A stretch of DNA of 64,000 bases from an uncultured Verrucomicrobiae bacterium (GTDB lineage Bacteria; Verrucomicrobiota; Verrucomicrobiia; Palsa-1439). The notes beneath the pieces are model-generated. The model made no database searches and was not told the DNA's origin. It worked only from the letters and a program-made list of their open reading frames with translations. The position numbers were made by a program, and so were the translations under genes. The DNA lies in contig CAWFPN010000010.1 of assembly GCA_963817685.1 (NCBI GenBank), positions 2,852 through 66,851 of the forward strand. The letters are read 5' to 3'. This document shows positions 32,444 through 59,283 of the stretch, in pieces; the stretch's first letter is position 1, and every line of letters starts with the position of its first letter.

Positions 32444-33518
32444 TCAGTCTCCAAAGGAGATGTCCAGGGTGCGCGCGGTCATCACGCCGTGCCAATCCAC
32501 AGGCACAAGATTGAGCTTGGCCGTCGCTTCCTTTAACGGCACGTAGTTGATCCGCGGCGGATTGATGGCAACCATGACGCCGTCCTGACCTTCGGCCAGC
32601 GCCCGCACCGCGGCCGCACCGAATGCCAAGCCGAGAAATCGGTCCAGCGAAGTCGGCTGTCCGCCGCGGAGCAGATGTCCGAGGACAACGGCGCGCGTTT
32701 CCTTGCCGGTCAACTCTCGCAACTGACCGGCCACGATCTCGCCGACGCCGCCGAGCCGCTCGACATGGCCGGGATTGGCGGCTTCCCTTAACGTCACGCC
32801 GCCGCCGACCGGCTTTGCGCCTTCGGCCACAACGACAATGGAATATTGCCGGCTCCGGCTCGCCGTCTTGCGTTTAACATGCGCGGCGACTTTCGTGATG
32901 TCGTACGGAATTTCCGGTATCAGAATCGCGTCCGCCCGACCGGCGATGCCGGTATGCAACGCGATCCAGCCAGCATACCGGCCCATCACTTCGACGACCA
33001 TCACGCGCCGGTGCGAGTCCGCGGTGAAATGCAGCCGGTCCACACACTCGGTCGCAAACGACACTGCGCTGTCGAAACCGAAGGTTATCGCCGTGGATTG
33101 CAGATCGTTATCGATGGTCTTCGGCACGCCCACGACGCGCAGGCCTTTTTCATTCAACTCTTGGGCGATGGCCAGTGTGCCATCGCCGCCGACGGAAATG
33201 AGCGCGTCGAGTCGATGTTCTCTGAAACGTCGCAGGACTTCGTCGAATCCCGTGCGTCTTGAATGGATTGCCGCGGTTGCTCGTGCCCAGCATCGTGCCG
33301 CCGAGGTGCACAATGTTGCGGACGACCGGGCGCGTGAGTTTTATCAGGCCGCCATCTGGATAACTGTCTGGGTCGAGCAATCCGTCGAGTCCGTCGCGGA
33401 TGCCGAAGATTTCCCAGCCGAGATTGCGCGCCGCATAGACGGCCGCCTGAATAACAGCGTTCAGTCCCGGCGCGTCGCCGCCGCCGGTATTGATGGCGAT
33501 TCGTTTGATGGCGTTCAT
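32444..33518 (-). pseudogene. pfkA: ATP-dependent 6-phosphofructokinase, disrupted by one +1 frame change near 33251-33260
   Basis: N-terminal frame (33518 down): MNAIKRIAINTGGGDAPGLNAVI...HLGGTMLGTSNRGNPF. C-terminal frame: GFDEVLRRFREHRLDALISVGGDGTLAIA...GVPKTIDNDL...MGRYAGWIAL. The span is 1075 nt (3n+1). Confidence 0.8.
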
Positions 33519-33817
33519 ACATTTACCCCGTCGATCGTTCTGCCATTGCGCACGGTAAAGGCCGGCAATTTCGCTGGCGCGGGCGTCACTTCGATGCTCA
33601 AGATGCTGTGCCTCGGAATGACCAGAAGCCGGCCGCTTAACTCCAGCACCAAGTCATGGGCCTGGAATGCCTTCTCGATCCGGCTGGCCAACATAACGTC
33701 ATCGCCGCCTTCTGGCGGGAACTGAAAGCGGTGCACGCTGCCGTCCACGAGCCGGACGATCATCGTTTGAGTCAGAGATTTTGGTTTCACGTGTTTGATT
33801 CCTTTCTTATCGGGCAT
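33515..33817 (-). CDS. Hypothetical protein (100 aa)
   Basis: Internal ATG (complement 33815-33817): MPDKKGIKHVKPKSLTQTMIVRLVDGSVHRF. Its stop overlaps the pfk start. The upstream part of listed ORF 33515..34060 overlaps the patatin gene. Confidence 0.5.
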   Translation of the reverse strand: MPDKKGIKHVKPKSLTQTMIVRLVDGSVHRFQFPPEGGDDVMLASRIEKAFQAHDLVLELSGRLLVIPRHSILSIEVTPAPAKLPAFTVRNGRTIDGVNV

Positions 33818-35201
33818 GTGTCTGCGTTGAGTATTCGGACTGCTCCTCGGACGACAAGTCGCACAGCAGTTTCTGGTAGCTCTCGGATTCGCGCAACAGC
33901 CGGCCGGCGACCTCGCGCAAGCGGTCGACTGCGCCGGGCGGGAGACTGAATTTCGTCGGTAGATTGTCGAAGTACTCCCGTTCCTTTGAGTCAGCCAACT
34001 GCTCGAAACTGACTTCGATGCCATAGACCTTGACGGGCTCCATGCCGGTTTGCCCATCATTCAATTCGCTTTCCCACTGTTCGATCCTGTCGTAAAAGAG
34101 TTGCCTGGTTTCGAAGGAATACCGGTTGATGACATCGCCGAAAGCGAAGCCGACTTCCACGATGCCGGGCGCCCGCGCGTGTTTGTCCCAACCGAGATCG
34201 CGGTGAGTGGCAGCGTTGACGGCAATGACGACGATTTTGCGGGGGCGTTTCACCCCGAAATACTGCATCGCCGGGCGTACTCCGCCGAGCGCCAGGACAG
34301 GCTCTAACGGTCCGCGCAAGCCCAAGTTGTCGGACAGACCACCGTCGATCAAATGAAAATACGGGTGGTCCGCCGCGTCCTGATAGGTGCGCATTTCCTT
34401 CGCTTTGAGGTAGCCGCGTGACAACCGCTCTCGTTGCACCAGCGCCGTTTCCACCTGCGGCGGTTCGGTGTACCCACAACTGCCGGCGTAGTTGTTGACC
34501 GTGATCGGAGTCAAGAGAACCGGGAATGCCGACGAGGCTGCCACCGCGCGGCCGACCGGGAACGTGGAAAGATCCGAGCACATCAAATCGAATTGGTCCT
34601 GCGTAAACCCAAAATGCGATGCCGATGACATGTCGGTCGCGTTTAAGAGCACAAACGGCGACTGGTAGGCCTGCGCTAAATCGCCGAATGTTTTGCCGCG
34701 AAACACATGCCGATCATAAAACTCCGCCAGCATGTCGCTGCGGCTGAAATACGGTGACGCGAACCGCACCCAATTCAACGGCGACAGCATCCGCCACATG
34801 AGCCGGTGCTGAATGTTTTGTTTCAGAAACACGCTTTCGTAGTCACGGAAAATCTCGTCTCCGAACAGGGCGTAGTACGCCGCCGTGAAACTGCCGCCGG
34901 AGACGGCGGAAATCATCTGCACCTCATCCAGCAAGCGTTTGTGCTGGCCTTCCCAGACAATGTCGGTCCGCGCCAGTTCCTCCAGCACGCCATAGGACAG
35001 CGCCGCAGCCCGATGGCCGCCGCCGGAGAATGCCAGCACGACGACCAGGCCGTCGGTGTTCTCCACCCTGGACACTGTCTTGAGACGATAGCCGGTGTCG
35101 GGGTTGTACTGAGTCAGCCGCGCATTCACCGGGTAATGAGCGCAGCCGGCGAGGAAGAGCGCATAGAATACGAACGCAATGCAGCTACTGCTTCGCCTCA
35201 T
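33807..35201 (-). CDS. Patatin-like phospholipase lipoprotein
   Basis: Start at the internal ATG 35201 with lipobox MRRSSSCIAFVFYALFLAGC. Oxyanion FSGGGHRAAA, nucleophile AVSGGS (GxSxG), catalytic Asp IDGGLSDNLG. Confidence 0.85.
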   Translation of the reverse strand: MRRSSSCIAFVFYALFLAGCAHYPVNARLTQYNPDTGYRLKTVSRVENTDGLVVVLAFSGGGHRAAALSYGVLEELARTDIVWEGQHKRLLDEVQMISAVSGGSFTAAYYALFGDEIFRDYESVFLKQNIQHRLMWRMLSPLNWVRFASPYFSRSDMLAEFYDRHVFRGKTFGDLAQAYQSPFVLLNATDMSSASHFGFTQDQFDLMCSDLSTFPVGRAVAASSAFPVLLTPITVNNYAGSCGYTEPPQVETALVQRERLSRGYLKAKEMRTYQDAADHPYFHLIDGGLSDNLGLRGPLEPVLALGGVRPAMQYFGVKRPRKIVVIAVNAATHRDLGWDKHARAPGIVEVGFAFGDVINRYSFETRQLFYDRIEQWESELNDGQTGMEPVKVYGIEVSFEQLADSKEREYFDNLPTKFSLPPGAVDRLREVAGRLLRESESYQKLLCDLSSEEQSEYSTQTHAR

Positions 35202-35202
35202 C

Positions 35203-35763
35203 TCACGCCTCTTCCTCAGGCTGCCCGGGTTGACCCGGCGGAAACAGCCGGTAAACGGCTTCGACAACGCCACCGTCCAAGCCACACTCTGCCTGTTTTT
35301 TGCCGACGGTCTCCAGTAGCCGCCGCATGGCCGTGTTGTACACCAGGAAGACAGCCTTCCAATGCCGGACGCCCGCTTGCCAGGCGCCCTCTGCGAGGGC
35401 AGCGAATACGAGTTTGCCAATGCCGTGCTGCTGCCACGCATCCGCCACCACAATGGCGACTTCGGCCAGGGCGAATTCGTCAGCGTCGCGCACGTAGCGC
35501 CCGACGGCGACAAGTTCCGGTTCACCGCCTTTGGCATCCGTCAGAAACGCTCCCAAGGCCAAGTGGTTCGCCCCGTCGCAGTGCGTGAAATATTTCAGCT
35601 CGGATGGCGAGAGACCGATCTTGTATGTCAGAAAACGACGGTAGCGCGATTCTGGCGAGAGTTGGCCAAAGCCGGTCTCCAACCTGGATGCATCATCGCC
35701 GCAAAGCGGACGCCACACGATCTGTGTCCCATCGATCAGAGTGCTATTGTGCGCCGAGTTCAT
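35203..35763 (-). CDS. GNAT family N-acetyltransferase
   Basis: VAIVVADAWQQHGIGKLVFAALAEGA is an acetyl-CoA-binding Q/RxxGxG/A motif. Confidence 0.7.
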   Translation of the reverse strand: MNSAHNSTLIDGTQIVWRPLCGDDASRLETGFGQLSPESRYRRFLTYKIGLSPSELKYFTHCDGANHLALGAFLTDAKGGEPELVAVGRYVRDADEFALAEVAIVVADAWQQHGIGKLVFAALAEGAWQAGVRHWKAVFLVYNTAMRRLLETVGKKQAECGLDGGVVEAVYRLFPPGQPGQPEEEA

Positions 35764-35767
35764 GTGC

Positions 35768-36772
35768 CTAGAAGAAATAGCTCGCGGTGATTACGCCGTA
35801 CTTAAACTGGTTCTGTTCGCCGTCGAACTCCTTGCCCCAAAAGACGTAGGTGAACGACGTTTGGAAACGCCGGTTGCCGATGCACAGGCCGACTCCCTCC
35901 GCGGGGACAAACCACTTCTTGTCCACGCTGCGACTGTCCTCAAACGTGTTTCCGTCGAGCGTGATGTCCCGCAAGACCAGATTGGCCACAGCGCCGCCGT
36001 AAATGGAATACCCCCAGTCAGAGTTCGATTCGGGCTTCCCACTTCGACGGGGCGGCGGCATCTGGTCCATGCCGCGCACCAGTGTTGGGCCGAAGTCGTC
36101 GGGGATGTTGTAGCCCGCCCGCATCAAGCCGCCGATTTGCGCCTGAGTCAGCATATTGCCCAGCCACCCACCCGCAATCGGCAATCCCTCGACCGACCAG
36201 GCGTCGCGTTCGCCGGCGAGCCGGAACTTGTGGCGATACTCATAGGCAAGGTTCACGATCGGCTCATTCTTCAACTGGTAGCTCCAGCCTTGAGGCTTGG
36301 TGCTGCCTATCAGACCATGCACTCCGCTCTGCGTTTCTCTGCCGAGTGCCGCCGGGCCAATGACGCCCACGACGAGCTTCAATCCGTTGTAGGAATTTGC
36401 CTGCTCGACATGGAGCGAAAGCCCCCCCGCGAGAATCGCGGCATACGGCCGATCCTTCGGATCGGGGTTGTGCAGGGTCAAGTTTGACGGCGTGAACATG
36501 AGCTGGGCAACATCATAACCAACCGTGCGGCGTCCCTGCCCCCACGGCAGCCAATCGGCCAGCGGGTCAAGCCAATTGGGACCGGTATGAGCCAGCGAAA
36601 GGGCAACACCGTCCGTGTAGTTCCGATCCGTACCGCCGAACGCGTCGTTTTCAAAGCGCCCTGACACGACCCATTGCTGTGGGGCGGAGTTGGTGGTGAC
36701 TTCAACCGCCGCGAATGAGGGCAGCGCCAGCAGTTGGGCAAAGACCACAAACGTTATTCCGTGAATCCTCAT
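35768..36772 (-). CDS. Outer-membrane lipid A deacylase LpxR-family (DUF2219) protein
   Basis: Signal MRIHGITFVVFAQLLALPSFAA. FENDAFGGTDRNYTDGVALS near the N-terminus. Beta-barrel-like alternating pattern ending YGVITASYFF. Confidence 0.6.
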   Translation of the reverse strand: MRIHGITFVVFAQLLALPSFAAVEVTTNSAPQQWVVSGRFENDAFGGTDRNYTDGVALSLAHTGPNWLDPLADWLPWGQGRRTVGYDVAQLMFTPSNLTLHNPDPKDRPYAAILAGGLSLHVEQANSYNGLKLVVGVIGPAALGRETQSGVHGLIGSTKPQGWSYQLKNEPIVNLAYEYRHKFRLAGERDAWSVEGLPIAGGWLGNMLTQAQIGGLMRAGYNIPDDFGPTLVRGMDQMPPPRRSGKPESNSDWGYSIYGGAVANLVLRDITLDGNTFEDSRSVDKKWFVPAEGVGLCIGNRRFQTSFTYVFWGKEFDGEQNQFKYGVITASYFF

Positions 36773-37236: not shown

Positions 37237-38728
37237 TTAAGAAGTCTCAACCGCCGGCTTCTTGAGTCCCCATTTCTTCATACGAGCCAGCAAGGTGGTG
37301 GGCTTGACGCCGAGGAGTTCGGCCGCGCCATCCGCGCCTTTGATCTTCCAGTTGGCTTCTTGGAGAACACTCAAGAGGTTGTCGCGCTCGCGGCGCTGCA
37401 TCTCGGCTTCGGTAAGGAATTTCGGTGCGTCAGCGTCACCGGGTGGTGATTCGATTCGAACCGGAGTCGGAGTCTTGGATTGGTTTGCCACCGGCAGGTC
37501 AAAATCCAGCGCCCCGCCGCGAGCCAGAATCACGGCGCGCTCGATCACGTTGCGTAATTCGCGAACATTTCCAGGCCAGTCGTAGTTTTGCAGTTTCGTG
37601 ATCGCCGCCCGGGTGCAGACGCGGTTTGGCGCATTTCAAGTCGCGCGTGGAGAGATCGACGAAATGTTTCGCCAGCGACGGGATGTCGTCGAGGCGTTCC
37701 CGAAGCGGCGGGACGTTGATCGGAAAAACATTTAGCCGGTAATACAGATCTTCGCGGAACTTGCCGGCGGCTACGGCTTGTTTCAGATCGCGATTCGTGG
37801 CTGCGATGATGCGCACATTGGCCCGCCGCGTGCGGTCGTCGCCGACGCGTTCGTAGCGTTTTTCCTGAAGCACGCGCAGGAGCTTGTTCTGAACGTCGAG
37901 CGGGATTTCGCCGACTTCATCGAGGAAGATCGTGCCGCCTTCGGCGGTTTCAAAACGACCGGCCCGGTCCTTCACGGCCCCGGTAAACGAGCCGCGCACA
38001 TGGCCGAAGAATTCGCTCTCGAAAAGTTCGCGCGGAATCGAAGCGCAATTGACACGAACCAGCGGCCCGTCTTTGCGCTGGCTGCGCCGGTGAATCTCGT
38101 GGGCGACCAGTTCCTTGCCGGTGCCGGTCTCGCCGAGAATCAGCACGGAAGCTTCGGTGGGCGCGACCAGATCAATTTGGCTGACGATGTGCCGGAGCGC
38201 GGCGCTTTGGCCGACAAGGTCGCCGAACGCTTTCGCCTCGACGACGGCTTCCTGCAAGTAGTCGTTGCGCAATTCGAGTTGCGCTTTGAGCGCGGCGATT
38301 TCCTCGTAGGCCCGCTGAAGCTCTTCTGCCCGGCGCAGTTGCAGGTGCGTTCGGACTCGCGCCAGCACTTCCTCGGCTTCAAACGGCTTGGTGATGTAAT
38401 CCACGCCGCCGGCTTCAAAGCCGGTGACTTTTTGGTGCGTATCGCCAAAGGCGCTGATGAAAATAACGGGGATGCGGCTGCTCTTCTCGTCTGCCTTCAA
38501 GCGCCGGCACACCTCATAGCCATCCATGTCCGGCATACTGACGTCGAGCAGGATCAGGTCTGGATTCTTGGCGGCGACGGATTTCAGCGCCAGAGCGCCG
38601 TCGGAAGCCGGGCGGACGCGATAGCCGTGTTTGGTGAGCAGGTCGGTCAGTAGGCGCAGGTTGGCGGGGGTGTCATCCACCACCAAAATGTCTTCCGGCG
38701 CTGAAGTCGGCTGGTTGTTTTGGCTCAT
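37237..38728 (-). pseudogene. Sigma-54-dependent response regulator (NtrC family: REC + AAA+ + Fis HTH), with one +1 frame change near 37615
   Basis: REC ILVVDDTPANL...LLDVSMPDMDG. AAA+ GETGTGKE, ESEFFGH, GSFTGA. After AKPRL the frame shifts, and the true continuation [31 protein letters not shown]...[21 protein letters not shown] is in the next frame. The span is 1492 nt (3n+1). Confidence 0.8.
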
Positions 38729-41700
38729 AACGTCTCTCCGGTTTGAGAACGCTCCCTTTCCAGCAATTTCAAAAGACGCTGATAGTCAAGCCGCGTGGCC
38801 AGCGTCTTCAAGGCCCGACCCAGCGAAGCATCTCGCTCGGCAACCTGCTCGATGAGGATTTGCGTGCGAGCCGTGTCCAGTTCGATGACGGCCTGACGCA
38901 ACTCCTGCAGCAGTTGCGCCGGCAGCGCGTCCAACTGCTCCGGATTCGGGGTAAGCTCCGGCGCCTCCGGCAGGCTCTCCTGACGCGGCGCTTCCTCGTA
39001 GATGAATTTCAGGCGCAGGTGCCGGGCCAGTGCGTCGAAGAGATCTTGTTCGCGAAATGGCTTGCGCACGAGATCATCGCAGCCGGCCGCCATAATGGGT
39101 TCTCGCTCTTCCTCCAGGGCGTGAGCCGTGAGCGCGATGATTTCGTAACGCCGCCGCCAGCCTGGGTCGCCCGAATCCGCCGGACTGCTTCCAACCCGTC
39201 CATCACCGGCATGCGGATATCCATCCAAATCAGGTCGGGATGCCATTGCTCGAACAGCGCCACGGCTTCTTGTCCGTTGGCGGCCTCGCGCAACTCAAAA
39301 CCGAGCGGTGCCAAAAGTCTTCGCAGCAGCAGACGGTTTTCCGGCTGGTCTTCGACAATCAGGAGCCGGTGACGGGGCTGCCCTTCGGCCAATCCCAAAA
39401 TGCGCCGGTGCTTCAGCTCATCGCGCTCCGCCACCGACGGAAGGATGCTCACTGGAATCTCGAAATAAAACACCGATCCCTTGCCCGGCTGGCTGGTCAC
39501 GCCAATCTGGCCCCCCATCAGCTCGACATACTGTTTGCAGATGGCCAAGCCCAATCCAGTCCCGGCTTGCGCGGGAGCCTGGTCACCCAATTGCACGAAG
39601 GGAAAGAAGATGCGCTGGCAATCCTCTTGGCTTATGCCAGGCCCGGAGTCCTCAACCTCAAATCGCACATTGGCTTTTTCGGACCCGTGGATACTGGCGA
39701 GCCTGGCGCGGAGCTTCACCCCGCCTGAATCCGTGTACTTGATCGCGTTGCCAAGCAGGTTCAGCAGCACTTGGCGCAGTTTGCCTGCGTCCACAGCAAC
39801 AAACCGGGGTAGATCTGGATCATGCTCCAAAGCGAAACGGAGGCCCTTTTCCACGGCCCCGACTCCCATGAGCGACTGCATTTCGTGCAGTAACCGGTGC
39901 AAGTCAACTTCGGACTCCTTCAGGGCCACCTGACCGGACTCGATCTTCGCCATGTCGAGGACATTGTTGATTAAATTCAGCAAGTGCTCGCCGCTGCGGA
40001 CAATGATATCCAACGTCTCCTGCTGCGGCGGCGTCACGTCCGGATCGTTCTTGAGCAGTCGGGAAAAACCGAGCACGGCGTTGAGGGGAGTGCGCAACTC
40101 ATGGCTCATGTTCGCCAGGAACGAACTCTTCGCGCGATTGGCGGCTTCGGCCCGGGCCTTGGCTTCCGCCAATTGCTCCGTTCGGTGCCTCACCATGTCT
40201 TCGAGGTTCTCCCGGTGCTTGCGCAGCTCGTCCTCGGCCAGTTTGCGTTCGGTCACATCCATCGCCGTGCCGACGTATTCAGCGACCTGTCCGTTTTCAT
40301 CGAGAACCGGATGGCCGATAGCATGGATGTGCTTGACTGTTCCATCGGGCAGCACAATCCGGTGTTCATGCTCGTACTCCCTATTTCCAGCCGCTGCCTT
40401 CAGCAGCAGTTCACGCGTGCGTTCGAGATCCTCAGGGTGGATTCGTTGCCAGAATGTTTCAGCGGTTGGCACACCGTCCTGCGGGTTTAAGCCGAAAATT
40501 CGGAACATTTCCTCGGACCAGTAAAGCGACTGGCGAGTGGCGGGGCTCCAGGCCCAACTGCCCATGTGGGCCAGCCGCTGCCCTTCCGCCAGATAAGCCT
40601 CACTTCTCCGCAGTGCATCCTCCGCGCGCTTGCGTTCCGTCACATCCATCGCGGTGCCGACGTATTGAACGACCTGTTCGTCTTGATCGAGAACCGGATG
40701 ACCAACCGCATGGATGTGCTTGACGGTTCCATCGGGCAGCACAATCCGGTGATCATGCTCGTAATCCAAGCCTCGCTGCGCCACTTTCATCTGCAATTCA
40801 CGGACACGGTCGCGATCCTCAGGGTGGATTCGTTGCCAGAGAGTTTCAGCGGTTGGCACGCCTTCCTGCGGGTTTAAGCCATAGATCCGGAACATTTCCT
40901 CCGACCAGTACAAGGGCTGGAGAGTGCCGGGGCTCCAGGCCCAACTGCCCGTGTGGCTCAGCCGCTGCCCTTCGGCCAGAGTAGCCTCACTTCTCCGCAG
41001 TGCATCCTCAGCGCGCTTGCGATCGGTGATGTCGCGCGCCACGTGGACGGCATATGTAAGTTCACCGTTCTGGTCAAATACGGGGTCAACGGAAACCGAC
41101 AACCAAGGACCTCCCTCTCTCGCCAGAACCTCCACTTCTTCATGCCTCCGAGATTGGCGCATTTTGGCGAGAGGGCATTCCGCCGGGGGCATGGACGTTC
41201 CGTGGATCAGATTAAAGCAGTGTCCCCCGACGATTTTGTCAAACGGCAGCCCGAGGAACTCCGCCGCTGCACGGTTGGCTCGCAAGATCTGGAAATCCTT
41301 GTCGAGCAGCAAAACCAAATCCTGCACCGCGTCAAAGGTAGCCTGCCATTGCGCGGCGGTATTGCGCACCTCTTCCTCCGCCCGCTTGCGCTCGGTGATG
41401 TCACGCACAAGGGCTAAGTTGTAAGCCCGGCCTTCATATTCGAAATAATTCGCGCTGATCTCGACCGGGAAAATGCGGCCATCTCGCGTTCGGTGGCGGC
41501 TTTCGAAAGTCATCGACTGCTGCGCCTTCAGGTCGCGCCAATGGTCGGACCAACGCTCCGCCGGGAACTCAGGATCAACATCTGATACGCTCATGGCGAG
41601 CAGTTCCGCTCGGGTATAACCCAGCCGGCGGCAGGCCTCCTCGTTAACATAACAAAGACGCGGCCCATCCATCAGAAAGGCGGCTTCGTGTCCTTTGTCC

Positions 41701-42518
41701 AAGGCAAAACTCAGCAGGGCGACTTCCTGCTCCGCCTGTTCGCGCGCGACCCGGGAACGCAGCGTGACGATGCCGAACGCCAAGTCGCCCGCCAGTTCCT
41801 CCAGCAGCCGAATCTCGTCCGACGTAAAAGCGTTGGGCTGGGCGCAATAAACTGCAAGACTGCCGAAGACGTTGGCGTGTTCATCCTTGAGCGGCACGGC
41901 GATGCCGGAACGAAAATCTTTCTGCAAAGCGCTCTCCCGCCAGGGCGCGAGTCGAGGATCCGTTGCGAAATCCTGAATGCAGCAGGTGTTCCCGCTCCGG
42001 ATGGCCGTTCCGGTGGGGCCGCGCCCACGCTCCGTGTCGGCCCAAGTTATGCCGAGGTTTGCGAGATATCCTTCCTCGGCTCCGGCCCACGCGACCGGGC
42101 GCACGTTCTTGGCTTCGTCGTGTTCGGCATAGCCGACCCACGCCATGCGGTAGCCGGCCTCATCGCAGACGATCCGGCAGATCTCTTTGAGCAGGCTCTG
42201 CTCGTCAGTGGCGCGCAGGAGGACTTGGTTGCAGTTGCTGATCGCTCGCAGTTCGCGATTCGAACGACGCAGGGCCTCTGAGGTTAGTTGAACGGCCTGG
42301 ATTAATCGCCTGATGGTGAAATAGAGCAGCGCGGCAGTCACGAAGACAAAGACAGTCCCCTTAATCGTCATCACAGCCGTGGGCAGATTGAGACGAGTTA
42401 CGACCGCGTCGCTGAACGCGATCCATAGAGTCGCGATCACAGCATAGCCCAGTGCAATTCGGATTGGACTCAAGCTTGAAACTCGCGAATGGAGCATTCT
42501 TCGGATTTTCATAACCAC
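38725..42518 (-). pseudogene. Hybrid sensor histidine kinase (2 TM, GAF, 4 PAS, HisKA, HATPase, REC, C-terminal helical domain), with one -1 frame change in a T-run at 39141-39143
   Basis: HisKA FLANMSHELRTPLNAV. HATPase DSGPGI...GTGLGLAI. REC LLIVEDQPENR...DLIWMDIRMPVMDG. After RATQAGGGVT the continuation (K)IIALTAHALEEEREPIMAAGCDDLVRKPF is in another frame (listed ORF 38725..39246). The span is 3794 nt (3n+2). Confidence 0.8.
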
Positions 42519-42676
42519 AACTCCTTCCCCGGCCGGGCGATGGTGGCAAATTCAGGACGAAACGTCCATCGCATTTCGGACAAGTTTTTAGACGTACAAT
42601 TTATCGAACCGGATACTTGCCAGGCGCGCTTTTTCTAAGTCGCTGCATCAAAGCATATTAGGACTTTTGGAATCCG

Positions 42677-43666: not shown

Positions 43667-43704
43667 CCTCACCCACGCCCAGCGCCCCGAAGGAGATTTT
43701 CAAT

Positions 43705-48329: not shown

Positions 48330-49813
48330 ATGAATTCATCTCTTCTCAAACTGCCGTTTTGGCTGGTCGCCGCGCTGACACTGACCGGGTGCGCCGTTGG
48401 CCCGAACTACCGGCGTCCCGCGGTGAATGCGCCGGCCGGTTTCCGCGACGCCGCCGGCCCTGTCTCCACCAACTCGTTGGCCGACCTGCCGTGGTGGGGC
48501 GTATTCAAGGACCCGGTGCTCCAAGACCTCGTTCGCGAGGCGCTCACCAACAACTATGACCTTCGCATCACCCTTACCCGGGTGGACCAGGCCCACGCGC
48601 TGCAGGAGCAGGCACTCTCTCAGTTCCTGCCGGAGGTTGACTACGAGGGCGAGGCCAACCGGGGCCGGAATGAATTATCTCAGCACGCCTTCTCCAAATG
48701 GCGGTAAGACCATGAATAGCTACCTGGCCGGCTTTGAAGTGCTTTGGGAGATCGACCTCTGGGGTCGCGTCCGCCGGATGAACGAGGCCGCGCGCGCGAA
48801 CTTCATGGCCTCGCAGGAGGGCCGGCGAGAGGTCATGATCTCCGTGGTCAGCGGCGTTGCGCGGGGCCTATTTCGAGTTGCTGGAACTGGACGACCAGCT
48901 TGCGATTGCCCAGCGCACCAGGGATTCCTACGAGCGGACATCAAACTCTTCAATGACCAGCATGCCGCCGGCCTGGCATCCAAGCTTGAGGTTTCCCGCG
49001 CCGAACTCGCACTGCGTTCGGTCACGGCGACCATCCCGGAAATCGAACGCCAAATTGCCCTCAAGGAAGACGAAATCAACACGCTCCTTGGACGCAACCC
49101 CGGCCCTGTCGAGCGCACCTCGACCCTGCTGGCGCAGGAGATGCCGGTGGAAATCCCGGTCGGACTGCCTTCGAGTTTGCTGGAGCGGCGGCCCGACGTT
49201 CGCGAGGCCGAGCAACAGGTCCGCGCCGCGAACGCGGAAATCGGCGTGGCCGTCGGAGACTTTTTCCCGCGCATCGGCCTGACAAGCTTTTACGGCGGCA
49301 CGAGCACCGACTTCGACAACTTGTTGAAGAGCGGCGCAAACATCTGGTCGGCGGCCGCGACCGCCGCTGGGCCGGTGTTTACCGGCGGCCGATTAACCGG
49401 CCATTACCGGCAAACCAAAGCTGGCTTGGGAAGAAACAAAGCTTCGTTACCAACAAACCGCCCTCAGCGCCTTCCGCGAGGTGTCCGATGCGCTTATCTC
49501 CCACCGCCGATACGAAGACGAGCGAGTCGAGCAAACCCAAGCCGTCGATGCCGGGCGCGATGCTGTGGAGTTGGCGACGGCGCGTTACAAAGAAGGCAAG
49601 GCCAGCTACTACGAGGTTCTCGAGGCGCAGCAGCAACTCTACCCCGCCGAAAACACCCTGTCGCGGATCGAAGCCGCGCGCCGGCTCACGGTCGTACAAC
49701 TTTACAAAGCCCTCGGCGGCGGCTGGTCGCTCAAGGATGGCGAGTGGTCCAAAGCAAGCGTCGCAGCATCATCTGCCGGGGAGACCGGCGCCGGAGGGAA
49801 TCTAAAGCCATGA
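48330..49813 (+). pseudogene. Outer-membrane factor lipoprotein (NodT/TolC family) with four frame changes
   Basis: Lipobox LTLTGCAVGPNYRRP. Homologous segments sit in frames 0, 1, 2, 1, 2, with switches near 48670-48705, 48863-48866 (GGGG run), 48938-48941 and 49419-49425. Diagnostic pieces: WEIDLWGRVRR, YFELLELDDQLAIAQRT, KLFNDQHAAGLASKLEV, WEETKLRYQQTALSAFREVSDAL, VQLYKALGGGW. Confidence 0.8.
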
Positions 49814-50052: not shown

Positions 50053-50135
50053 CCTGGTCGTGGCCAAAAGGAACTATCGACGTATGAAGAAGCCCGAACT
50101 GATTTGTCGAGCTGAGATGTAGAGGTATTATCACC

Positions 50136-50306: not shown

Positions 50307-50331
50307 TTGATGGTATCGAGCGAAGCCAGTC

Positions 50332-50598
50332 ATGAAAACCAGCCCCCTGCCAAAGGAAAGTCTCCTCGAACGCTACAACTGCGGGCCGGTTAAATTATCC
50401 TGTGACTCCAACGCTTTTTATGAGCGGCATGTCACGTTCGACCAGGTCGTCGCGGAAACGGAAACTTCCGATCGCGACAAGTACGAGGCCATCGCAGCTC
50501 GCGCAGCCATAAGAACCCAAATGATTCTCGAAGAGGCGAACTGGATGAACCCGTCAGGCGCACAAACGAGGCTATCCAAGCAGGGTAGGAAGGTATGA
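50332..50598 (+). pseudogene. 5' remnant of a glycogen phosphorylase gene (first ~55 codons homologous, then unrelated tail)
   Basis: LLERYNCGPVKLSCDSNAFYERHVTFDQVVAETETSDRDKYEAIA compared with the full glgP LLARYNCGPVKLSGEPNALYERHVAFDQVVPETETSPRDKYEAVA at 54783. Confidence 0.7.
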
Positions 50599-51239
50599 AC
50601 GCAATTACTCAATTCCTGATTGCACACGGCGGTTTGATTTTGTTCGTGATCGCCTTCGCGGAACAGAGCGGCTTACCGCTGCCGGGAGCGCCGTGGCTCG
50701 TGGCGGCGGGCGCTCTGGCGGCGAGCGGAAAGTTTGATCTAATCGCTGGAATCAGCTGGGCGGCGATCGGCTGTGTAGTGGCCGACGCGATTTGGTTTTT
50801 CCTGGGACACCGAGGCAAGGCCCGCGTCTTCCGGGTGTTTCCGCATTTGAACGCGGTGCAGGTCCGGCTTGACCGCGCCACACCCGCCAAAACCGTCCTG
50901 CACGGCACACGCATGCTCACCATGGCGAAATTCCTGCCGTTCGGTACGGTCGTTCCCATGCATGCCGGCGCGTTGGAGGTCGGTCGGCTGCGCTTCTTGC
51001 TTGTGGATGCCTACTGCTCGGTGTTTTACTCGGCTGTGTATGCCGCCTTGGGATTCGCTTTCCACAATCAACTGGAACAGGTCGTGGCATTCCTGCGCAA
51101 GCTCGGCACGGTGTCGTTGGTGGCAATCGTGGTCTTGGCGGGAGGCTACATCGTCTATTCCTTTTTTAAGCACCGCCGGGCGCGACAGCATCCCGAGCCG
51201 GGCAAAGCCCGGGGGAACGCATATGTTCCATGTCTTTGA
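50595..51239 (+). CDS. DedA family inner-membrane protein
   Basis: GGLILFVIAFAEQSGLPLPGAPWLVAAGALA plus further TM segments. Its start overlaps the remnant's stop. Confidence 0.7.
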   Translation: MNAITQFLIAHGGLILFVIAFAEQSGLPLPGAPWLVAAGALAASGKFDLIAGISWAAIGCVVADAIWFFLGHRGKARVFRVFPHLNAVQVRLDRATPAKTVLHGTRMLTMAKFLPFGTVVPMHAGALEVGRLRFLLVDAYCSVFYSAVYAALGFAFHNQLEQVVAFLRKLGTVSLVAIVVLAGGYIVYSFFKHRRARQHPEPGKARGNAYVPCL

Positions 51240-51242
51240 GCG

Positions 51243-52373
51243 ATGAGCGAAACCAAAAACATTCTCGTGCTGAATGCCGGCTCGTCGAGCTTGCGGTTCG
51301 CGGTTTTCGATGAGTCACCGGCGCGCGTTCTCTCCGGCAAATTCGACCGCATCGGATTGCCGAAGTCGATCTTCATGACGCAAACCGAGCGCGCGGAAGT
51401 TCCGGTGGCGAATCACGTTGCGGCTTTGGAGCACTTGATGGAACGACTTGCCGGGATGGATCTCCGCGCCATCGGTCACCGGGTAGTACACGGCGGCGCA
51501 GCCTACCGGCAGCCGCAACGCGTGGACCACGCGATGCTCGCGGAACTGCGGCGCATTCGCGCGTTTGACCCGGAGCATCTTCCCGCAGAAATCGCGCTCA
51601 TGGAACTTCTCGCCGAAAAGTTTCCGGGCGTCCCCCAGATTGCTTGTTTCGACACGGCGTTTCACAGGACCATGCCGCGCGTGGCGCGGTTGCTCCCGAT
51701 CCCGCGCCGGTACGAAGCGCAGGGCGTGCAACGCTACGGCTTTCACGGCTTGTCGTACGAATATTTGCTGTCCCAACCGGCTCTGAACGGCAGAGTCATC
51801 CTCGCGCATCTCGGCAACGGCGCGAGCATGGCGGCGGTGCGCGACGGCCAACCGGTGGACACCACCATGGCGTTTACCCCCGCCGCCGGTCTGGTGATGA
51901 GCACCCGCTCCGGCGATATCGATCCCGGCTTGATCGCATTTCTGGCGCGGAGCGATCACATCACAGCAGCACAATTTACCCGGATGGTGAATCACGAATC
52001 CGGACTGCTGGGCGTTTCCGAAACCAGTTCGGACATGCGCGACTTGCTGGCGCGCGAAAGCAGCGACGTGCGCGCAGCCGAGGCCATCGCGTTGTTTTGC
52101 TATCAGGCGAAGAAATGGATCGGCGCGTACGCCGCCGCGCTCGGCGGACTCGACACCCTCGTGTTTACTGGCGGCATCGGCGAAAACTTGCCGGTGATTC
52201 GCGCCCGTATCTGCGATGGATTGGGTTTTCTCGGAATCGAACTCGACGAACAACAAAATGGCGGCAACGCCGGCATCGTTTCGCGCGGCCGGGTTGCGGT
52301 GCGCGTCATTCGCACCGATGAAGAAATGATGATCGCCCGGTCGGTCGGCAGAGTGTTGGGGGAAAACACATGA
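51243..52373 (+). CDS. ackA: Acetate kinase
   Basis: [25 protein letters not shown], and GFHGLSYEY. Confidence 0.85.
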
Positions 52374-54761
52374 ATAAGGAAATGCGTAAACTCGACGCGT
52401 ACTGGCGCGCGGCAAACTATCTGTCAGTCGGCCAGATTTATCTCTACGACAATCCGCTGCTGAAACAACCGCTGCGGCGCGAGCACATCAAGCCGCGGTT
52501 GCTCGGACATTGGGGCACGACGCCGGGACTCAATTTCATTTACGTCCACCTCAATCGCGTCATCAAAGCGCAAGACTTGAACATGATTTACGTCATCGGC
52601 CCCGGCCATGGCGGGCCGGGCATTGTCGCGAACGCGTATCTCGAGGGCACGTACAGCGAAGTCTATCCGAACATTTCGCAGGACGAAGCCGGCATGAAGA
52701 AGTTGTTCAAACAGTTTTCGTTTCCCGGCGGCATTCCGAGTCACGTCGCGCCCGAAACGCCCGGCTCAATCCACGAAGGCGGCGAACTCGGCTACTCACT
52801 GTCGCACGCGTTTGGCGCGGCGTTCGACAATCCCGATCTCATCGTCGCGTGCGTCGTCGGCGACGGCGAAGCAGAGACCGGCCCGCTCGCCACCGGCTGG
52901 CACGGGAACAAATTTCTCAACCCGGCGCGCGACGGCGCGGTTCTGCCGATCTCTGCATCTCAACGGTTACAAGATCGCGAATCCGTGTTACCTCGCGCGC
53001 ATCCCGCACGACGAATTGCAGAAGCTGTTAGAGGGCTACGGCTACAAACCCTATTTCGTCGAAGGCCACGAGCCGGCGAAGATGCACGAGTTGATGGCGG
53101 CCACCCTCGACAAGGTCACCGCCGACATCAAACAGATTTGGCAGCAAGCCCGGCAACGCGGTTTCAAAACACGGCCGGCATGGCCGATGATTATTTTGCG
53201 GACGCCGAAAGGTTGGACGTGTCCGCCGAAGATTGACGGCCTGAAATGCGAAGACTACTGGCGTTCGCATCAGGTGCCGATGAGCGACATGGACAAGCCC
53301 GGTCACGTCAAAGTGCTCGAACGCTGGATGAAGAGTTACCGGCCCGCGGAGTTGTTCGACGAGACCGGGAAGTTGAAGCCCGAACTCGCCGCGCTCGCGC
53401 CGACCGGCAAGCGTCGCATGAGCGACAACCCGCACGCCAACGGCGGATTGTTGTTGCGCGACCTGAAGATGCCGGATTTCCGCGATTACGCGGTGAATAC
53501 GTCCGCGCCCGGCGCGGCAACTGCCGAGGCGACGCGGGTCATGGGCCGGTTTTTGCGTGACGTGATGAAGCTGAACCTCGACAGCAAGAATTTCCGACTG
53601 TTCAGTCCCGACGAGAACAATTCGAATCGGTGGCAAGACGTGTTGGAAGTCACGAACCGGTGTTACACCGCCGAGATTCTGCCCACCGACGATCATCTCG
53701 CGCCTGACGGCCGGGTGATGGAGGTCTTGAGCGAGCACCAATGTCAAGGCTGGCTCGAGGGCTATCTCTTGACGGGCCGGCACGGGTTCTTCAGTTGCTA
53801 CGAGGCGTTCATCCACATCATCGACTCGATGTTCAACCAGCACGCCAAGTGGCTCAAGGTCTGCCACGAGATTCCTTGGCGCCGGTCCATTGCGTCGCTG
53901 AATTATCTGCTCAGCTCGCATGTCTGGCGGCAGGACCACAACGGTTTCAGCCATCAGGATCCCGGCTTCATCGATCACGTCGTGAACAAAAAGGCCGGCG
54001 TCATCCGCGTCTATCTGCCGCCGGACGCGAACTGCCTGCTGAGCGTGACCGACCATTGCCTGCGCAGCCGCAATTACGTGAACGTCATCGTCGCCGGCAA
54101 GCAACCGGCGCCGGTCTGGCTCACGATGGACGAGGCGATCAAGCATTGCACCGCCGGGCTGGGCATCTGGGAATGGGCCAGCAATGATCGCGGCGGCGAA
54201 CCGGATGTGGTCATGGCTTGTTGCGGCGACGTGCCCACTCTCGAAACGCTGGCGGCAGTGGATTTGCTGCGGCGATACTTGCCGGAGTTGAAGGTGCGCG
54301 TCATCAACGTGGTGGATCTGATGAAGCTCGAATCACCGAGCGAGCATCCGCACGGCCTGAACGACCGGGACTTCGATGCGTTGTTCACCACGGACAAGCC
54401 GATTGTGTTCGCGTTTCACGGTTACCCGTGGCTGATTCACCGGCTAACCTACCGGCGGACAAATCACAAAAATCTTCACGTCCGCGGCTACAAGGAAGAA
54501 GGCACGACCACGACGCCGTTCGACATGTGCGTGCTCAACGACCTCGACCGGTTCCATCTGGTGCGCGACGTCATTGACCGTGTGCCAACACTCGGCGCGC
54601 GGGCGGCCTACGCCAAGCAGGTGATTGACAACGCGCTCATCGAGCATCGCCAATACATTGACGAACACGGCGAAGACATGCCGGCGATTCTCAACTGGAA
54701 ATGGAGCGGAAACGGAACAGGGCGCGCCACCCGGAGTTCGACGGAGGCAGACAACGCGTAA
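52370..54761 (+). pseudogene. xfp: Phosphoketolase (xylulose-5-P/fructose-6-P), with a single extra T at about 52952
   Basis: [35 protein letters not shown], then DGAVLPI|t|[11 protein letters not shown] continues in the +1 frame (listed ORF 52812..54761). The span is 2392 nt (3n+1). Confidence 0.85.
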
Positions 54762-54782
54762 CCAAATACCCGTGCTTGAGGT

Positions 54783-57251
54783 GTGTCGATGAAGATCAAA
54801 ATGGAAAATCTGCTCGCGCGTTACAACTGTGGGCCGGTCAAACTGTCCGGCGAACCCAATGCGTTATATGAACGGCACGTGGCCTTCGATCAAGTCGTCC
54901 CGGAAACGGAAACCTCCCCCCGCGACAAGTACGAGGCCGTCGCGCGCTCCGTGCGCGATGTGCTCTCGCAACGTTGGCTGAAAACCGAGCAGACCTACCG
55001 GCAGCGCAATGCCAAGCGCGTTTATTACCTCTCGATGGAGTTCCTGCTCGGTCGCACCCTGGCGAACAACATCACCAATCTCCTGCTTGACCCTGGCTGG
55101 CACCAGTTCTGCCAATATGAGCGACTCGACCCCCTGCAGATCATCGAGCAGGAACCGGATGCCGGTCTGGGCAACGGCGGCCTGGGCCGGCTGGCGGCGT
55201 GTTTTCTCGATTCAATGGCGACACTGGCCATTCCCGGCATGGGTTATGGCTTGCGCTACGAGTACGGGATGTTCCGGCAAGACATCCGCAATGGCTGGCA
55301 GGTCGAACAACCCGACCACTGGCTCGCGCGGCCTAGCCCGTGGGAGGTGCCGCGGCCCAACGAAGCCGTTGAGGTAAAGCTCAACTGTTCGTTCGAGATC
55401 CGGGGTGGCGCGCTGCGGGTTGTCGAAGGACGCCCGTCATCCCTTATCGGCATTCCTTACGACCGGCCTGTGGTCGGATACGGCGGCCGGACAATCAACA
55501 CGCTACGTCTGTGGGCTGCCAAGACGCCGAACTCATTCGACTTCGCCCGATTCAGCAGCAGCGATTTCGTCGGCGCACTGGCCGAAACCCTCACCGCCGA
55601 GACGCTCACGCGTGTTTTGTATCCCGACGACCATACAGTGGAGGGCAAAGGTCTGCGATTCCTTCAAGAATACTTTCTTGTCGCGTGCTCGCTGGCCGAT
55701 CTCGTCCGACGTTTCCGCGCCGCCGGCAACGATTGGCCGGCGCTGGCCGACAAGGTGGCCATTCAACTCAACGACACGCATCCGGCGATCGCCGTGCCGG
55801 AATTGATGCGGCTGTTGCTGGACGAGGCAAAGCTAAGTTGGGACGACGCGTGGAATCTCACGCAACGCACGCTGGCATACACCAACCACACGCTGCTGCC
55901 GGAAGCACTGGAGAAATGGCCGGTGCAGTGGTTCACGGATCTCCTGCCGCGCCATCTCGAAATCATTTACGAAATCAATCGCCGCTTCCTCGAGGACGTC
56001 CGCACTCGCTATCCCAGCGATGCCGGGCGGATCGAGCGCGTCAGCCTCATCGAAGAAGGCGTGGCCCACCAAGTCCGCATGGCGCCCCTGGCCATTGTTG
56101 GCTCGCACAGCACCAACGGCGTTGCCGCGCTGCATTCGGAGTTGCTCAAGCAGCGAGTCGTGCCGGATTTTGCGGCCCTGTTCCCCGAACGCTTCAACAA
56201 CAAAACCAACGGCGTCACGCCGCGCCGCTGGCTGCTGCTGGCCAACCTGTCGCTGGCAGCGGTCATCACCGAGGCCATCGGCGACGGCTGGATCACCGAT
56301 CTGATGCAGTTGGAGAAGCTGAAACCGCTCGCCGATGACGCGTCGTTTCGTGCCGCGGTCCGCAAGGCGAAACGCCAGGCGAAGACGCGGTTCATCGGGT
56401 GGCTGGGAATGCCAGGGATCGATCCCGACACGATTTTTGACACCCAGATCAAACGCATCCACGAATACAAACGGCAACTGTTGAACGCGTTGCACATTGT
56501 CGTGCTCTATAACCGTCTGCGCGACAACCCGCAGCTCGATGTGCCGCCGCGCGCCTTCTTCTTCGGCGGCAAGGCCGCGCCCGCGTATTCCTTCGCCAAG
56601 CTCGTCATCAAGTTCATCAACAACCTGGCTGGCACGCTCGACGGTGATCCGATCACCCAAGGCCGGTTGAAGGTCGTCTTCGTGCCGGACTACCGTGTGT
56701 CCATCGCGGAATATCTGATCCCGGCCAGCGACGTGTCCGAGCAAATCTCGACGGCCGGCTACGAAGCCAGCGGCACGAGCAACATGAAATTCATGATGAA
56801 CGGTGCGCTGACCATTGGCACACGCGACGGCGCGACCATCGAGATGGCGAAAGCGGCCGGTGAGGAAAACTTCTTCCTCTTTGGTCTGACCGCAGAAGAG
56901 GTCGAGGGCAGCCGCGCTTGGTATGATCCGCGCTGGCACTACGACCACGAACCCGAAACGCGCGCCGCCCTCGATTTGATTGCCGGCAATCATTTCAGCC
57001 GAAACGAACCCGGCGTTTTCGCGCCCATCCTCGATGCGCTGCTGAAGCACGGCGATTACTACCGGCATTTGGCCGACCTCACCAGTTATGCCGAAGCGCA
57101 GCAACGCCTAGGCGAGTTGTACGCCGACCAACAGGCGTGGACGCGCAAAGCCATCCTTAACATCGCCGCGTCCGGCAAGTTTTCCAGTGACCGCACCATT
57201 GCCGAATACGCAAAAGAGATTTGGGATGCCAAACCATGCATAGTCGAATAA
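54783..57251 (+). CDS. glgP: Glycogen/alpha-glucan phosphorylase
   Basis: 822 aa. YLSMEFLLGR, GLGNGGLGRLAACFLDS, and the PLP-Lys region EASGTSNMKFMMNGALTIGTRDGATIEM. The start may be the ATG at 54789. Confidence 0.9.
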   Translation: MSMKIKMENLLARYNCGPVKLSGEPNALYERHVAFDQVVPETETSPRDKYEAVARSVRDVLSQRWLKTEQTYRQRNAKRVYYLSMEFLLGRTLANNITNLLLDPGWHQFCQYERLDPLQIIEQEPDAGLGNGGLGRLAACFLDSMATLAIPGMGYGLRYEYGMFRQDIRNGWQVEQPDHWLARPSPWEVPRPNEAVEVKLNCSFEIRGGALRVVEGRPSSLIGIPYDRPVVGYGGRTINTLRLWAAKTPNSFDFARFSSSDFVGALAETLTAETLTRVLYPDDHTVEGKGLRFLQEYFLVACSLADLVRRFRAAGNDWPALADKVAIQLNDTHPAIAVPELMRLLLDEAKLSWDDAWNLTQRTLAYTNHTLLPEALEKWPVQWFTDLLPRHLEIIYEINRRFLEDVRTRYPSDAGRIERVSLIEEGVAHQVRMAPLAIVGSHSTNGVAALHSELLKQRVVPDFAALFPERFNNKTNGVTPRRWLLLANLSLAAVITEAIGDGWITDLMQLEKLKPLADDASFRAAVRKAKRQAKTRFIGWLGMPGIDPDTIFDTQIKRIHEYKRQLLNALHIVVLYNRLRDNPQLDVPPRAFFFGGKAAPAYSFAKLVIKFINNLAGTLDGDPITQGRLKVVFVPDYRVSIAEYLIPASDVSEQISTAGYEASGTSNMKFMMNGALTIGTRDGATIEMAKAAGEENFFLFGLTAEEVEGSRAWYDPRWHYDHEPETRAALDLIAGNHFSRNEPGVFAPILDALLKHGDYYRHLADLTSYAEAQQRLGELYADQQAWTRKAILNIAASGKFSSDRTIAEYAKEIWDAKPCIVE

Positions 57252-57326
57252 CAACGCCCCGAATGGTGATGTTCGTTCTGCTGCTTGTGCTGTCCGGCTA
57301 CGCCTCGTCCTGCCAATGGACCGACC

Positions 57327-59283
57327 ATGATCGCTGAAGGCCAGCCAATACCGCCAGGAGTGACGTGGGAGGACGACGGGTGGAACTTCGCCCTGTACTC
57401 CCGGCACGCGACCGGCGTGACGTTGCTGTTGTACGACGGGAAGAATTTCGTGAAGCCGCTGGCCGAACTCACGCTCGATCCGCTTCAGAACAAGACGGGA
57501 CGGATCTGGCATTGCTTCGTCCCTCGCGTGGCAGGCGTGCGATACTACGCCTACCGGGTCGAAGGCCCGAGCGGCGCACTGCAGCAGTTCGACGCGCAGA
57601 AGGTGTTGCTCGATCCCTTCGCCGAGCAGGTATTCTTTCCGCCGGAGTTTTCGCGTGCCGCCGCGATGCGGGCGGGCGCGAACGATGGACACGCACCGCT
57701 CGGTGTGTTGCCGGTGAAGAAGCCGGCCACTGGGAAGTTCACGCGGATCCGGCATCCGTGGCACGAGATTGTCATTTATGAGTTGCACGTCAAGGGTTTC
57801 ACGGCCCGCGCGAACTCCGGAGTGACGAAGGAAAAACGCGGGACGTTCCTGGGCTTGATCGAGAAGATTCCGTATCTGAAGGAACTCGGCGTGACGGTGG
57901 TGGAATTGTTGCCGGTGCATCAGTTCGATCCGCAGGAGGGCAATTACTGGGGCTACATGACGTTGAACTTTTTCGCGCCGCATCAAGGCTACGGCGTGCA
58001 CGACGCGGCGGCGGAGTTTCGCGAGATGGTGCGCGCGTTTCACGCGGCGGGAATCGAGGTGTGGCTCGACGTAGTGTACAACCATACGTGCGAAGGCGAC
58101 CGGACCGGCCCGACGTATTCGTGGCGCGGGATTGACAACAGCAGTTACTACCTGCATCGGCCGGATGGACAATACTGCAACGACAGCGGTTGCGGGAACA
58201 CGCTGCGGTGCGGCCGCGACGCCGCGCGCATGCTGATTCTGGAGAGCCTGCGGCATTGGGCGAATCTCGGCGTGGACGGGTTTCGTTTTGATTTGGCCTC
58301 GGCAATGGCGCGCGATGCGCACGGCCAAGTGCAGACGGAAGATGCCGCGCTGATCAGCGAAATTACCGCGCTGGCGATCTCGCGCAGATCTCCGAGTAGT
58401 GGCCGAGGCGTGGGACATCGGGGTGAATTTGCTGGGTAAAAGATTTCCGGGCTGGCTGTGGGGACAGTGGAACGGCCGGTATCGCGATGATGTGCGCGCG
58501 TTTGTCCGTGGCGATGCCGGCAAGGTCGGCGCGTTGATGCAGCGGTTGTACGGCAGCGATGACTTGTTTCCCGACGGCCCGGGGGATGTGTACCGGCCGT
58601 ATCAGAGCGTCAACTTCATCACCGCGCACGATGGTTTTTGTCTTTACGATCTGGTCGCCTACAACCACAAACACAACGCGGCGAACGGGCACAACAACAC
58701 GGATGGCACAGACCACAATGTGAGTTGGAACTGCGGTTGGGAAGGTGATGGGAGCGCGCCGGCGGAGGTGCTCGCGTTGCGCCGGCGACAGGTGAAGAAC
58801 TTTTTCTGTCTGCTGATGTTATCAAACGGCACGCCGATGTTCTGCGCGGGCGACGAGTTTCTGAACACCCAAGGCGGCAACAATAACCCGTACAATCAAG
58901 ACAACGAGACGACGTGGCTCGATTGGTCGAAGCTGGAGAAGAACCGGGACATCTTTCAGTTTTTTCAGCGGATGATCGCGTTTCGCAAAACCCACCCGGC
59001 GATCGCGCGCGGTCGCTATTGGCGGGAGGCGGTGCGGTGGTACGGCGCGACTGGCCCGGTGGATTTTGATTCGCGCTGTCTGGCGTATTGTTTGCACGGC
59101 GCGAGCGACCTGTACGTCATGATCAACGCCTTCTGGGAGCCGGTGCGATTCCAAATTCAGCAGTCCGGCGCCTGGAACTGTGTCGTGGACACCAGCCGCC
59201 AGGATTTGGCAACGCAGGCTGTCGACGGGCTGAACTACGAGGTCGCGCCACGGTCCGTCGTCGTGCTGGAGCGCGCATGCTGA
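57327..59283 (+). pseudogene. glgX: Glycogen debranching enzyme (GH13 GlgX-type), with one +1 frame change near 58386
   Basis: YELHVKGFT, GIEVWLDVVYNHT, GVDGFRFDLAS, then ...ALAISR|a|DLRVVAEAWDIG continues in the +1 frame (listed ORF 58399..59283) with NFITAHDGF. The span is 1957 nt (3n+1). Confidence 0.85.

Follow-up and report, generated by a model that had tools for sequence, protein, structure and literature searches.

Do ten single-base frame breaks in the cargo of a mobile element record mutations of a bacterium, or errors in its assembled sequence? The question is raised by a stretch of 64,000 nucleotides (nt), hereafter the window, from an uncultured Verrucomicrobiae bacterium (GenBank assembly GCA_963817685.1, contig CAWFPN010000010.1, positions 2,852 to 66,851), which carries a predicted 36-kb mobilizable element at a gene for tRNA-Thr. 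An annotation that accepted the sequence as it stands would list seven pseudogenes and suggest that the cargo of a selfish element is decaying. Our analyses make it very probable that the breaks are consensus-sequence errors, not the organism's mutations, and that they stem from mixed read pile-ups over a shared block of genes running from pfk to glgX.

Ten one-base breaks in seven cargo genes

We tested reading frames with a self-written protein-to-DNA aligner that has frameshift states, using orthologues from related loci as queries (for the hybrid histidine kinase, the locus L006, at 85% amino acid (aa) identity). Exact break positions were taken from nucleotide alignments, in which the pfk loop and the kinase site are ambiguous. 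The frameshift-aware alignment gave exactly ten one-base breaks in seven cargo genes, eight of +1 and two of -1 (Table 1), and no frame break was detected anywhere else in the window. The genes and positions named in the original prediction, and its count of about eight insertions and two deletions, were reproduced. A plain nucleotide alignment rendered the pfk site as an 11- or 35-nt deletion; we rejected this reading, as the protein-level alignment resolves it into a loop of variable length plus a single +1.

The frame pieces are contiguous and colinear with full-length homologues, both in Pfam profiles and in orthologue alignments. The PFK domain is divided over two open reading frames (ORFs; profile positions 1-83 and 76-277), and XFP_N over neighbouring ORFs in different frames (5-196 and 197-363). 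ACR_tran continues up to 801 and then from 827 to 1020, the receiver domain of the kinase is divided into 2-69 and 71-110, and the outer-membrane factor (OMF) is in four pieces. The OMF gene is a hotspot, with four events in 1.45 kb against 0.7 expected. Runs of at least three identical bases hold only two or three of the ten events, which corrects the earlier statement that several breaks fall in short runs.

The breaks are confined to one block

All ten breaks lie inside the pfk-to-glgX cargo block (32.4-59.3 kb) of an element bounded by repeats, and an exact 40-nt repeat resembling attachment (att) sites confirms the island framing from which the question started. In the block, about 21.5 kb of coding DNA were tested and gave 10 events. 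At this rate, the flanking chromosome should hold about 11; none was observed (P of none about 1e-5), a strong contrast. Long ORFs cover 88% of the 25.8 kb of the left flank. Its CHAT, DUF928, TpsB and TpsA genes and the N-terminus of its S8 peptidase each form one colinear segment against metagenome relatives; a metagenome scan gave two close relatives, short contigs only, which suffice for the colinearity of these five genes. For two further left-flank ORFs, of 690 and 518 aa, intactness was judged by ORF continuity alone. The claim that nothing is disrupted to the left of the island was upheld.

The contrast between the cargo block and the mobility and toxin-antitoxin genes is only marginal. 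At the block rate, about three events would be expected in the integrase, relaxase and AbiE genes (about 6.8 kb), and none was observed (P about 0.04). That these genes are unbroken, as had been noted, is correct, but their sparing carries little statistical weight. Several genes of the block itself are also free of breaks. Among them are glgP, by orthologue test, and ackA, by an unbroken ORF and a full-length acetate-kinase Pfam match without an orthologue to test; both had been called intact before. The frame test against orthologues likewise found no break in DedA, the small ORF at 33530-34060, the patatin-like lipase and LpxR, and the intactness of the GNAT gene is judged from an unbroken ORF and a Pfam match only.

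Table 1. Coordinates of the element, its cargo genes and their frame breaks in the window
Feature	Position	Strand	Remarks
tRNA-Thr (TGT)	25759..25834	-	Intact; ARAGORN; only tRNA gene in the window
Tyrosine recombinase (integrase)	25927..27117	+	Intact; Pfam Phage_integrase, profile 4-169 of 172
TrwC-type (MOBF) relaxase-helicase	28600..31794	+	Single unbroken 1064-aa ORF; Pfam TrwC 4-279 of 286, AAA_30, UvrD_C_2
Phosphofructokinase (pfk)	32444..33518	-	+1 at about 33248-33263, within a loop whose length varies among relatives
Conserved small ORF (33530-34060), patatin-like lipase, GNAT, LpxR	33530..36772	-	Unbroken
NtrC-type response regulator (REC, sigma-54 AAA+, HTH)	37237..38728	-	+1: additional G at 37615, on the + strand between T and C
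Hybrid histidine kinase (GAF, PAS x3, HisKA, HATPase, REC)	38725..42518	-	-1 in the T run 39141-39143, splitting the receiver domain
Thioredoxin, conserved hypothetical ORF (42950-43666), RND membrane-fusion protein (MFP)	42729..44781	+	All intact, orthologue-tested
RND permease	44794..48319	+	+1 at 47638-47639; window ATC-A-C-AG, relatives CAG or AAG
Outer-membrane factor (OMF)	48330..49813	+	+1 at 48676-48677; +1 at 48862-48866; -1 between 48940 and 48941; +1 at 49422-49423
glgP 5'-end relic	50352..50495	+	144 nt, 79% identical to 54800-54943; upstream of DedA
DedA/VTT-domain protein and acetate kinase (ackA)	50595..52373	+	Both unbroken ORFs
Phosphoketolase (xfp)	52370..54761	+	+1 at 52952-52953; window ATC-T-C-TG; TTG and CTG both Leu
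Glycogen phosphorylase (glgP)	54783..57251	+	Intact, orthologue-tested
Glycogen debranching enzyme (glgX)	57285..59283	+	+1 at 58387-58388; window CA-G-A-TC; single column, A in L001, G in L017
AbiEii toxin and AbiEi antitoxin	59661..61354	-	Both unbroken ORFs; Pfam AbiEii, AbiEi_1
Right repeat copy GATTACAAATCAGCTGCTCTGCCAATTGAGCTACGCTGGC, orphan tRNA half	61764..61803		Exact 40 nt, 100% identity, E = 3e-13 (alignment, self-BLAST); right end of the element

The same block in short-read and Nanopore assemblies

Homologous loci of the block were compared according to how they had been assembled. Loci in metagenome-assembled genomes (MAGs) built from short reads, recognised by MEGAHIT- or SPAdes-style contig names (k141_, NODE_ and similar), contain no real frameshift in 12 loci (about 28,700 aa; about 86 kb). 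The Microflora Danica MAGs are Nanopore-only and were assembled with Flye and one round of Medaka (PMC12313526). Five of their seven loci carry 58 frameshifts (L033 37, L030 13, L035 4, L031 2 and L037 2), and 52 of the 58 are +1. One stop was flagged among these frameshifted loci, in the L030 patatin, which is itself without a frameshift. The events cluster at the kilobase scale; L030 has 11 in its RND and OMF genes (5 kb); five other genes of this locus, 5.2 kb together, are free of them. Comparison with orthologous loci, a check that accompanied the original prediction, thus finds short-read assemblies of relatives in frame and Nanopore-only ones with frameshifts like those of the window.

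The Nanopore insertions have a distinctive form. In 48 of 52, the insertion falls in an alignment column where relatives differ, and two of their alleles stand next to each other, against a null of 0.50 obtained by simulating random insertions in the same alignments (p = 6.5e-11). Seven window insertions were testable in this way. Five belong to the same class, two are synonymous alternatives, and none is a plain duplication or unexplained. The window has A-C in the RND gene where relatives have A or C, and G-A in glgX where L017 has G and L001 has A. The OMF pairs are T-A (Phe or Tyr codons), C-G (Arg or Gly) and T-G (synonymous Ala), and the regulator and xfp sites offer synonymous Leu alternatives. 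Insertions at polymorphic columns with both alleles retained point to pile-ups of mixed strains.

Some break sites recur. The second OMF site of the window (residue 186) is frameshifted in L033, a Nanopore MAG locus, as well, and the Nanopore loci share RND residues 465 and 570 among themselves; three exact coincidences among independent Nanopore-only MAGs compare with about 0.5 expected. OMF residues 186 and 269/270 are also among the frameshift sites of the Nanopore loci. A search for motif enrichment around the ten sites, aimed at an error context of the methylation type, gave nothing significant (best ATC, p = 0.07 before correction).

Consensus indels in Oxford Nanopore (ONT) assemblies are known to produce frameshifted gene calls, and consensus quality drops steeply below about 40-fold coverage (PMC9262707). 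Only 57-70% of the proteins predicted from soil ONT assemblies are full length (PMC13087279). The window resembles the frameshift-truncated genes of Nanopore-only metagenome assemblies, the problem addressed by the IDEEL test, in that one-base indels split conserved genes that bear no other marks of decay. With the five frameshifted Flye and Medaka soil MAGs, it shares a +1-biased clustering of events. It differs from the classic account, which stresses homopolymer indels (PMC9262707), since the window and its Nanopore relatives have mostly insertions at polymorphic columns. Given the signature shared with the Nanopore MAGs, the most likely source of the window is a metagenome assembly from long reads of the Nanopore type. 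Locally poor consensus quality, one of the two explanations offered originally, gains support from a direct analogue, the +1-dominated, kb-clustered frameshifts, free of stops, of Nanopore-only assemblies of the same genes.

A cargo module shared with soil relatives

The closest relatives of the window are soil Verrucomicrobiia MAGs. Four loci (L001, L004, L017 and L030) are 82-90% identical to it at the nucleotide level, but only between the stop codons of pfk and glgX. Their mutual similarity ends at the same two points, even for L004 and L017 with their 93% identity inside the block. The error zone of the window coincides with the block that these four have in common. The OMF family is abundant in public soil data (7,903 matches at E < 1e-50), and the clean left flank has few relatives in metagenomes.

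In relatives the block adjoins different tRNA genes, for Ser in L001, Phe in L004 and Leu in L012, an indirect hint of excision or transfer of the element. L004 has an integrase fragment beside its tRNA-Phe, and in L001 the final 13 nt of tRNA-Ser are repeated about 500 nt past the glgX stop (E = 0.024). The different tRNA neighbours and the repeat in L001 suggest that the pfk-to-glgX block is island cargo in these relatives too. These features lie at 2340-2434 and 21394-21406 in L001, 854-1155 in L004 and 407-491 in L012.

Two segments set the window apart from its four syntenic relatives. One comprises the hybrid kinase and the receiver domain of the regulator (38290-42540) and is closest to L006, at 90%; at this position, the four relatives have about 590 nt and a different N-terminus. 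The homologue of the kinase segment in L006 is at 164-2011, and the C-terminal part of the regulator is 76% identical to L006 and 85-90% to L001 and L030. This apparent module swap would have arisen by intragenic recombination or else from a consensus that is chimeric. The other segment is DedA-ackA-xfp, in a rearranged position. The gene order is OMF, DedA, small ORF, glgP in relatives and OMF, small ORF, relic, DedA, ackA, xfp, glgP in the window. The 5' relic of glgP, next to the DedA-ackA-xfp segment, is the scar of a real rearrangement or insertion.

The small ORF of this gene order (49837-50052, + strand) encodes about 72 aa with Cys pairs (CFVC...CSAMC) and is conserved in L001, L017 and L030. 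The out-of-frame tail of the broken OMF gene reads through it, and gene callers could merge or miss this ORF.

Consensus errors or mutations of the organism

We propose that the pfk-to-glgX block is a conserved cargo module in many co-occurring soil Verrucomicrobia, and that, because so many of them carry it, reads of related strains or species would pile up on it while the sequence is assembled or polished. At single-base differences between such reads, the consensus would sometimes keep both alleles side by side, giving +1, and more rarely keep neither, giving -1. The integrase, the relaxase, the AbiE pair and the host chromosome would draw no foreign reads and would stay clean. Mixed pile-ups would account for the match of the error zone to the shared block, for the clean state of the element-specific genes and the chromosome, and for the lack of a selection signal. 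They would also account for the hotspots, in the window as in its Nanopore relatives, in the OMF and RND genes, which have the most close homologues. Such mixed pile-ups are the most likely cause of the breaks.

Several observations weigh against this explanation. Two of the seven Nanopore loci (L006 and L018) have no frameshifts, and the artefact is thus not universal. Within the window alone, the both-alleles statistics are suggestive only (P = 0.03 for all seven insertions; P = 0.10 for at least five in the first class). The implied allele pairs of the window comprise three transitions and five transversions, nearer to random insertion than to typical single-nucleotide polymorphisms between strains. 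When the frame-corrected OMF was searched against 5.8 billion proteins for a near-identical intact copy, the best match reached only 86-87% identity, and exact-sequence look-ups of glgP, MFP, ackA and one left-flank protein found no matching record. Other observations are what genuine recent pseudogenisation would leave, that is, real one-base indels gained by metabolic, efflux and regulatory cargo no longer needed, while integrase, relaxase and AbiE were kept for persistence of the element. All ten breaks are in the cargo of a bounded element, the OMF gene was struck four times, as a long-dead gene would be, and the integrase, relaxase and AbiE genes are all unbroken. The element also has real structural scars, in the glgP relic and the replaced kinase/regulator module.

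We nevertheless consider pseudogenisation unlikely. Across about 4,500 codons of the seven broken genes, read in their corrected frames, not one in-frame stop occurs, and no large deletion or insertion sequence (IS) interrupts them; the sole relic is the separate glgP fragment. With substitutions typically outnumbering indels by about 10:1, several stop codons should have accompanied ten neutral indels. Identity to orthologues is 83-92% for the broken genes and 79-92% for intact neighbours, at the amino acid level, with xfp at about 65% to its only, distant, relatives. The ratio of nonsynonymous to synonymous substitution rates (dN/dS, Nei-Gojobori) is 0.10-0.20 for the broken genes against relatives, equal in intact neighbours, and 0.08-0.15 among intact relatives, a comparison that is weak for very recent inactivation, as dS to the nearest relative is 0.3-0.8. 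The dN/dS check of the disrupted genes therefore gave no rise over intact orthologues. Naturally arising small indels in bacteria are biased to deletions and arise mostly by slippage in runs. The breaks do not match this spectrum, with insertions outnumbering deletions 8:2, few events in runs and at least four insertions that, in nucleotide alignments, are unlike either neighbouring base (G between T and C in the regulator, A between C and C in the RND gene, T between C and C in xfp, and G or A between A and T in glgX). Decaying genomic islands and grounded prophages resemble the window as bounded integrative elements with many disrupted genes. Their nonsense mutations, deletions, IS insertions, relaxed dN/dS and deletion bias are not seen here, and their mobility genes are usually affected too, unlike those of the window. 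The sparing of the mobility and toxin-antitoxin genes would occur by chance about 4% of the time and is weak evidence. Pseudogenisation would further require an unusual insertion-biased mutation process without slippage, and its outcome would have to resemble by chance what Nanopore-only assemblies show, since the block is intact in 12 of 12 short-read assemblies and broken in Nanopore-only ones alone. The idea that the cargo decays while selfish functions are kept, the other explanation originally offered, is thus poorly supported.

An artefact of another cause appears less probable still. If the island were at lower read depth than the chromosome, as it would be if only some of the population carried it, long-read errors arising at random could survive polishing with no mixing of haplotypes. 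The confinement of the errors to the island would fit, as would the steep fall of long-read consensus quality at low coverage (below about 40-fold, PMC9262707). Yet the integrase, relaxase and AbiE genes should then suffer equally, and of the about three events expected there none was observed (P about 0.04). The errors that Nanopore consensus sequences retain at low depth fall mostly in homopolymers (PMC9262707), at odds with only two or three of the ten events in runs of at least three. Low depth also leaves the OMF hotspot unexplained, and each of the seven testable insertions can be read as two alleles in tandem. Functional recoding, in which programmed ribosomal frameshifting or transcriptional slippage would restore full-length proteins, is barely conceivable; in its favour is only that the pieces stay colinear with full-length homologues. 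The sites have no slippery motif or enriched k-mer in common and are not conserved in any orthologue, all short-read relatives being in frame, and four events of mixed sign in one gene are incompatible with a recoding signal. We rejected programmed frameshifting specifically because orthologues are in frame at every site and no motif is shared.

The tRNA-Thr element

The left copy of the direct repeat of the element is the 5' 40 nt of the tRNA-Thr gene (25795-25834). Between the two copies are the integrase, the relaxase, the pfk-to-glgX block (32444-59283) and the AbiE pair. In the latter, PF09407 and PF08843 were found on ORFs at 60509-61354 and 59661-60512, which overlap by 4 nt; the adjacent predicted AbiEi and AbiEii have the gene arrangement of an AbiE type IV toxin-antitoxin system. 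Pfam scans of the submitted island ORFs returned no family of a type IV secretion system or coupling protein. A recombinase, a relaxase and tRNA-derived repeats, with no conjugation genes, therefore make the repeat-bounded region a predicted 36-kb integrative mobilizable element (IME). The G+C content is about 60% throughout the window (0.57-0.62) and is the same in the island as in its flanks, so composition speaks neither for nor against recent acquisition.

The element shares with tRNA-integrated IMEs of the MOBF/TrwC type a tyrosine recombinase by the tRNA gene, an exact tRNA-derived repeat and a relaxase without conjugation machinery. The toxin-antitoxin module and metabolic cargo of such elements are also present in it. 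It differs in its repeat, which corresponds to the 5' half of the tRNA, from the anticodon loop to the 5' end, and not to the usual 3' end, and in having the integrase on the 5' side of the tRNA. By these features, the element is a putative ordinary new member of the tRNA-integrated mobilizable elements.

Other features of the window

The adjacent 690-aa and 518-aa proteins of the left flank are paralogous over their C-terminal 190 residues (15958-16521 and 17508-18074, 81% nt identity) and have no Pfam match. Their genes are absent from L039, the sole metagenome relative found that extends past CHAT, in which CHAT is followed directly by DUF928. A repeat of 84-88 nt is present in three copies (19404-19492, 21155-21243 and 21316-21403; 88-95% identical), two of them in the 5' part of the gene for TpsB (ShlB-type) and the third shortly downstream of that gene. 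Adjoining tRNA-Thr, an ORF on the minus strand (24812-25552) encodes a protein of 246 aa, predicted to be secreted and without a Pfam match, in which Gly, Tyr, Trp and Pro are extremely frequent (GGYYGGYHGGYYHGGYW repeats). At the right end, a large plus-strand ORF (61965-63998), which has the top codon-usage score in the window and no Pfam match, runs off the edge; opposite it, on the other strand, lies its shadow ORF of 579 aa (62139-63878).

Meaning of the frame breaks

If the breaks were real, they would show a tRNA-Thr-integrated mobilizable element caught losing its metabolic, efflux and regulatory cargo by rapid one-base insertions with integrase, relaxase and AbiE intact. They would then capture selection at work on the element instead of the host, under an unusual mutation process that favours insertions. 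Consensus errors over a shared block, the explanation that we prefer, have a different meaning. Clusters of frameshifts in long-read metagenome assemblies can match widely shared mobile cargo exactly and so mimic island-specific decay. Their signature, biased to +1, with the two alleles of a polymorphic column adjacent and without stops, could serve to flag and repair such errors without reads. For the organism, it would follow that its pfk, xfp, glgX, RND pump and two-component system genes are most probably intact.

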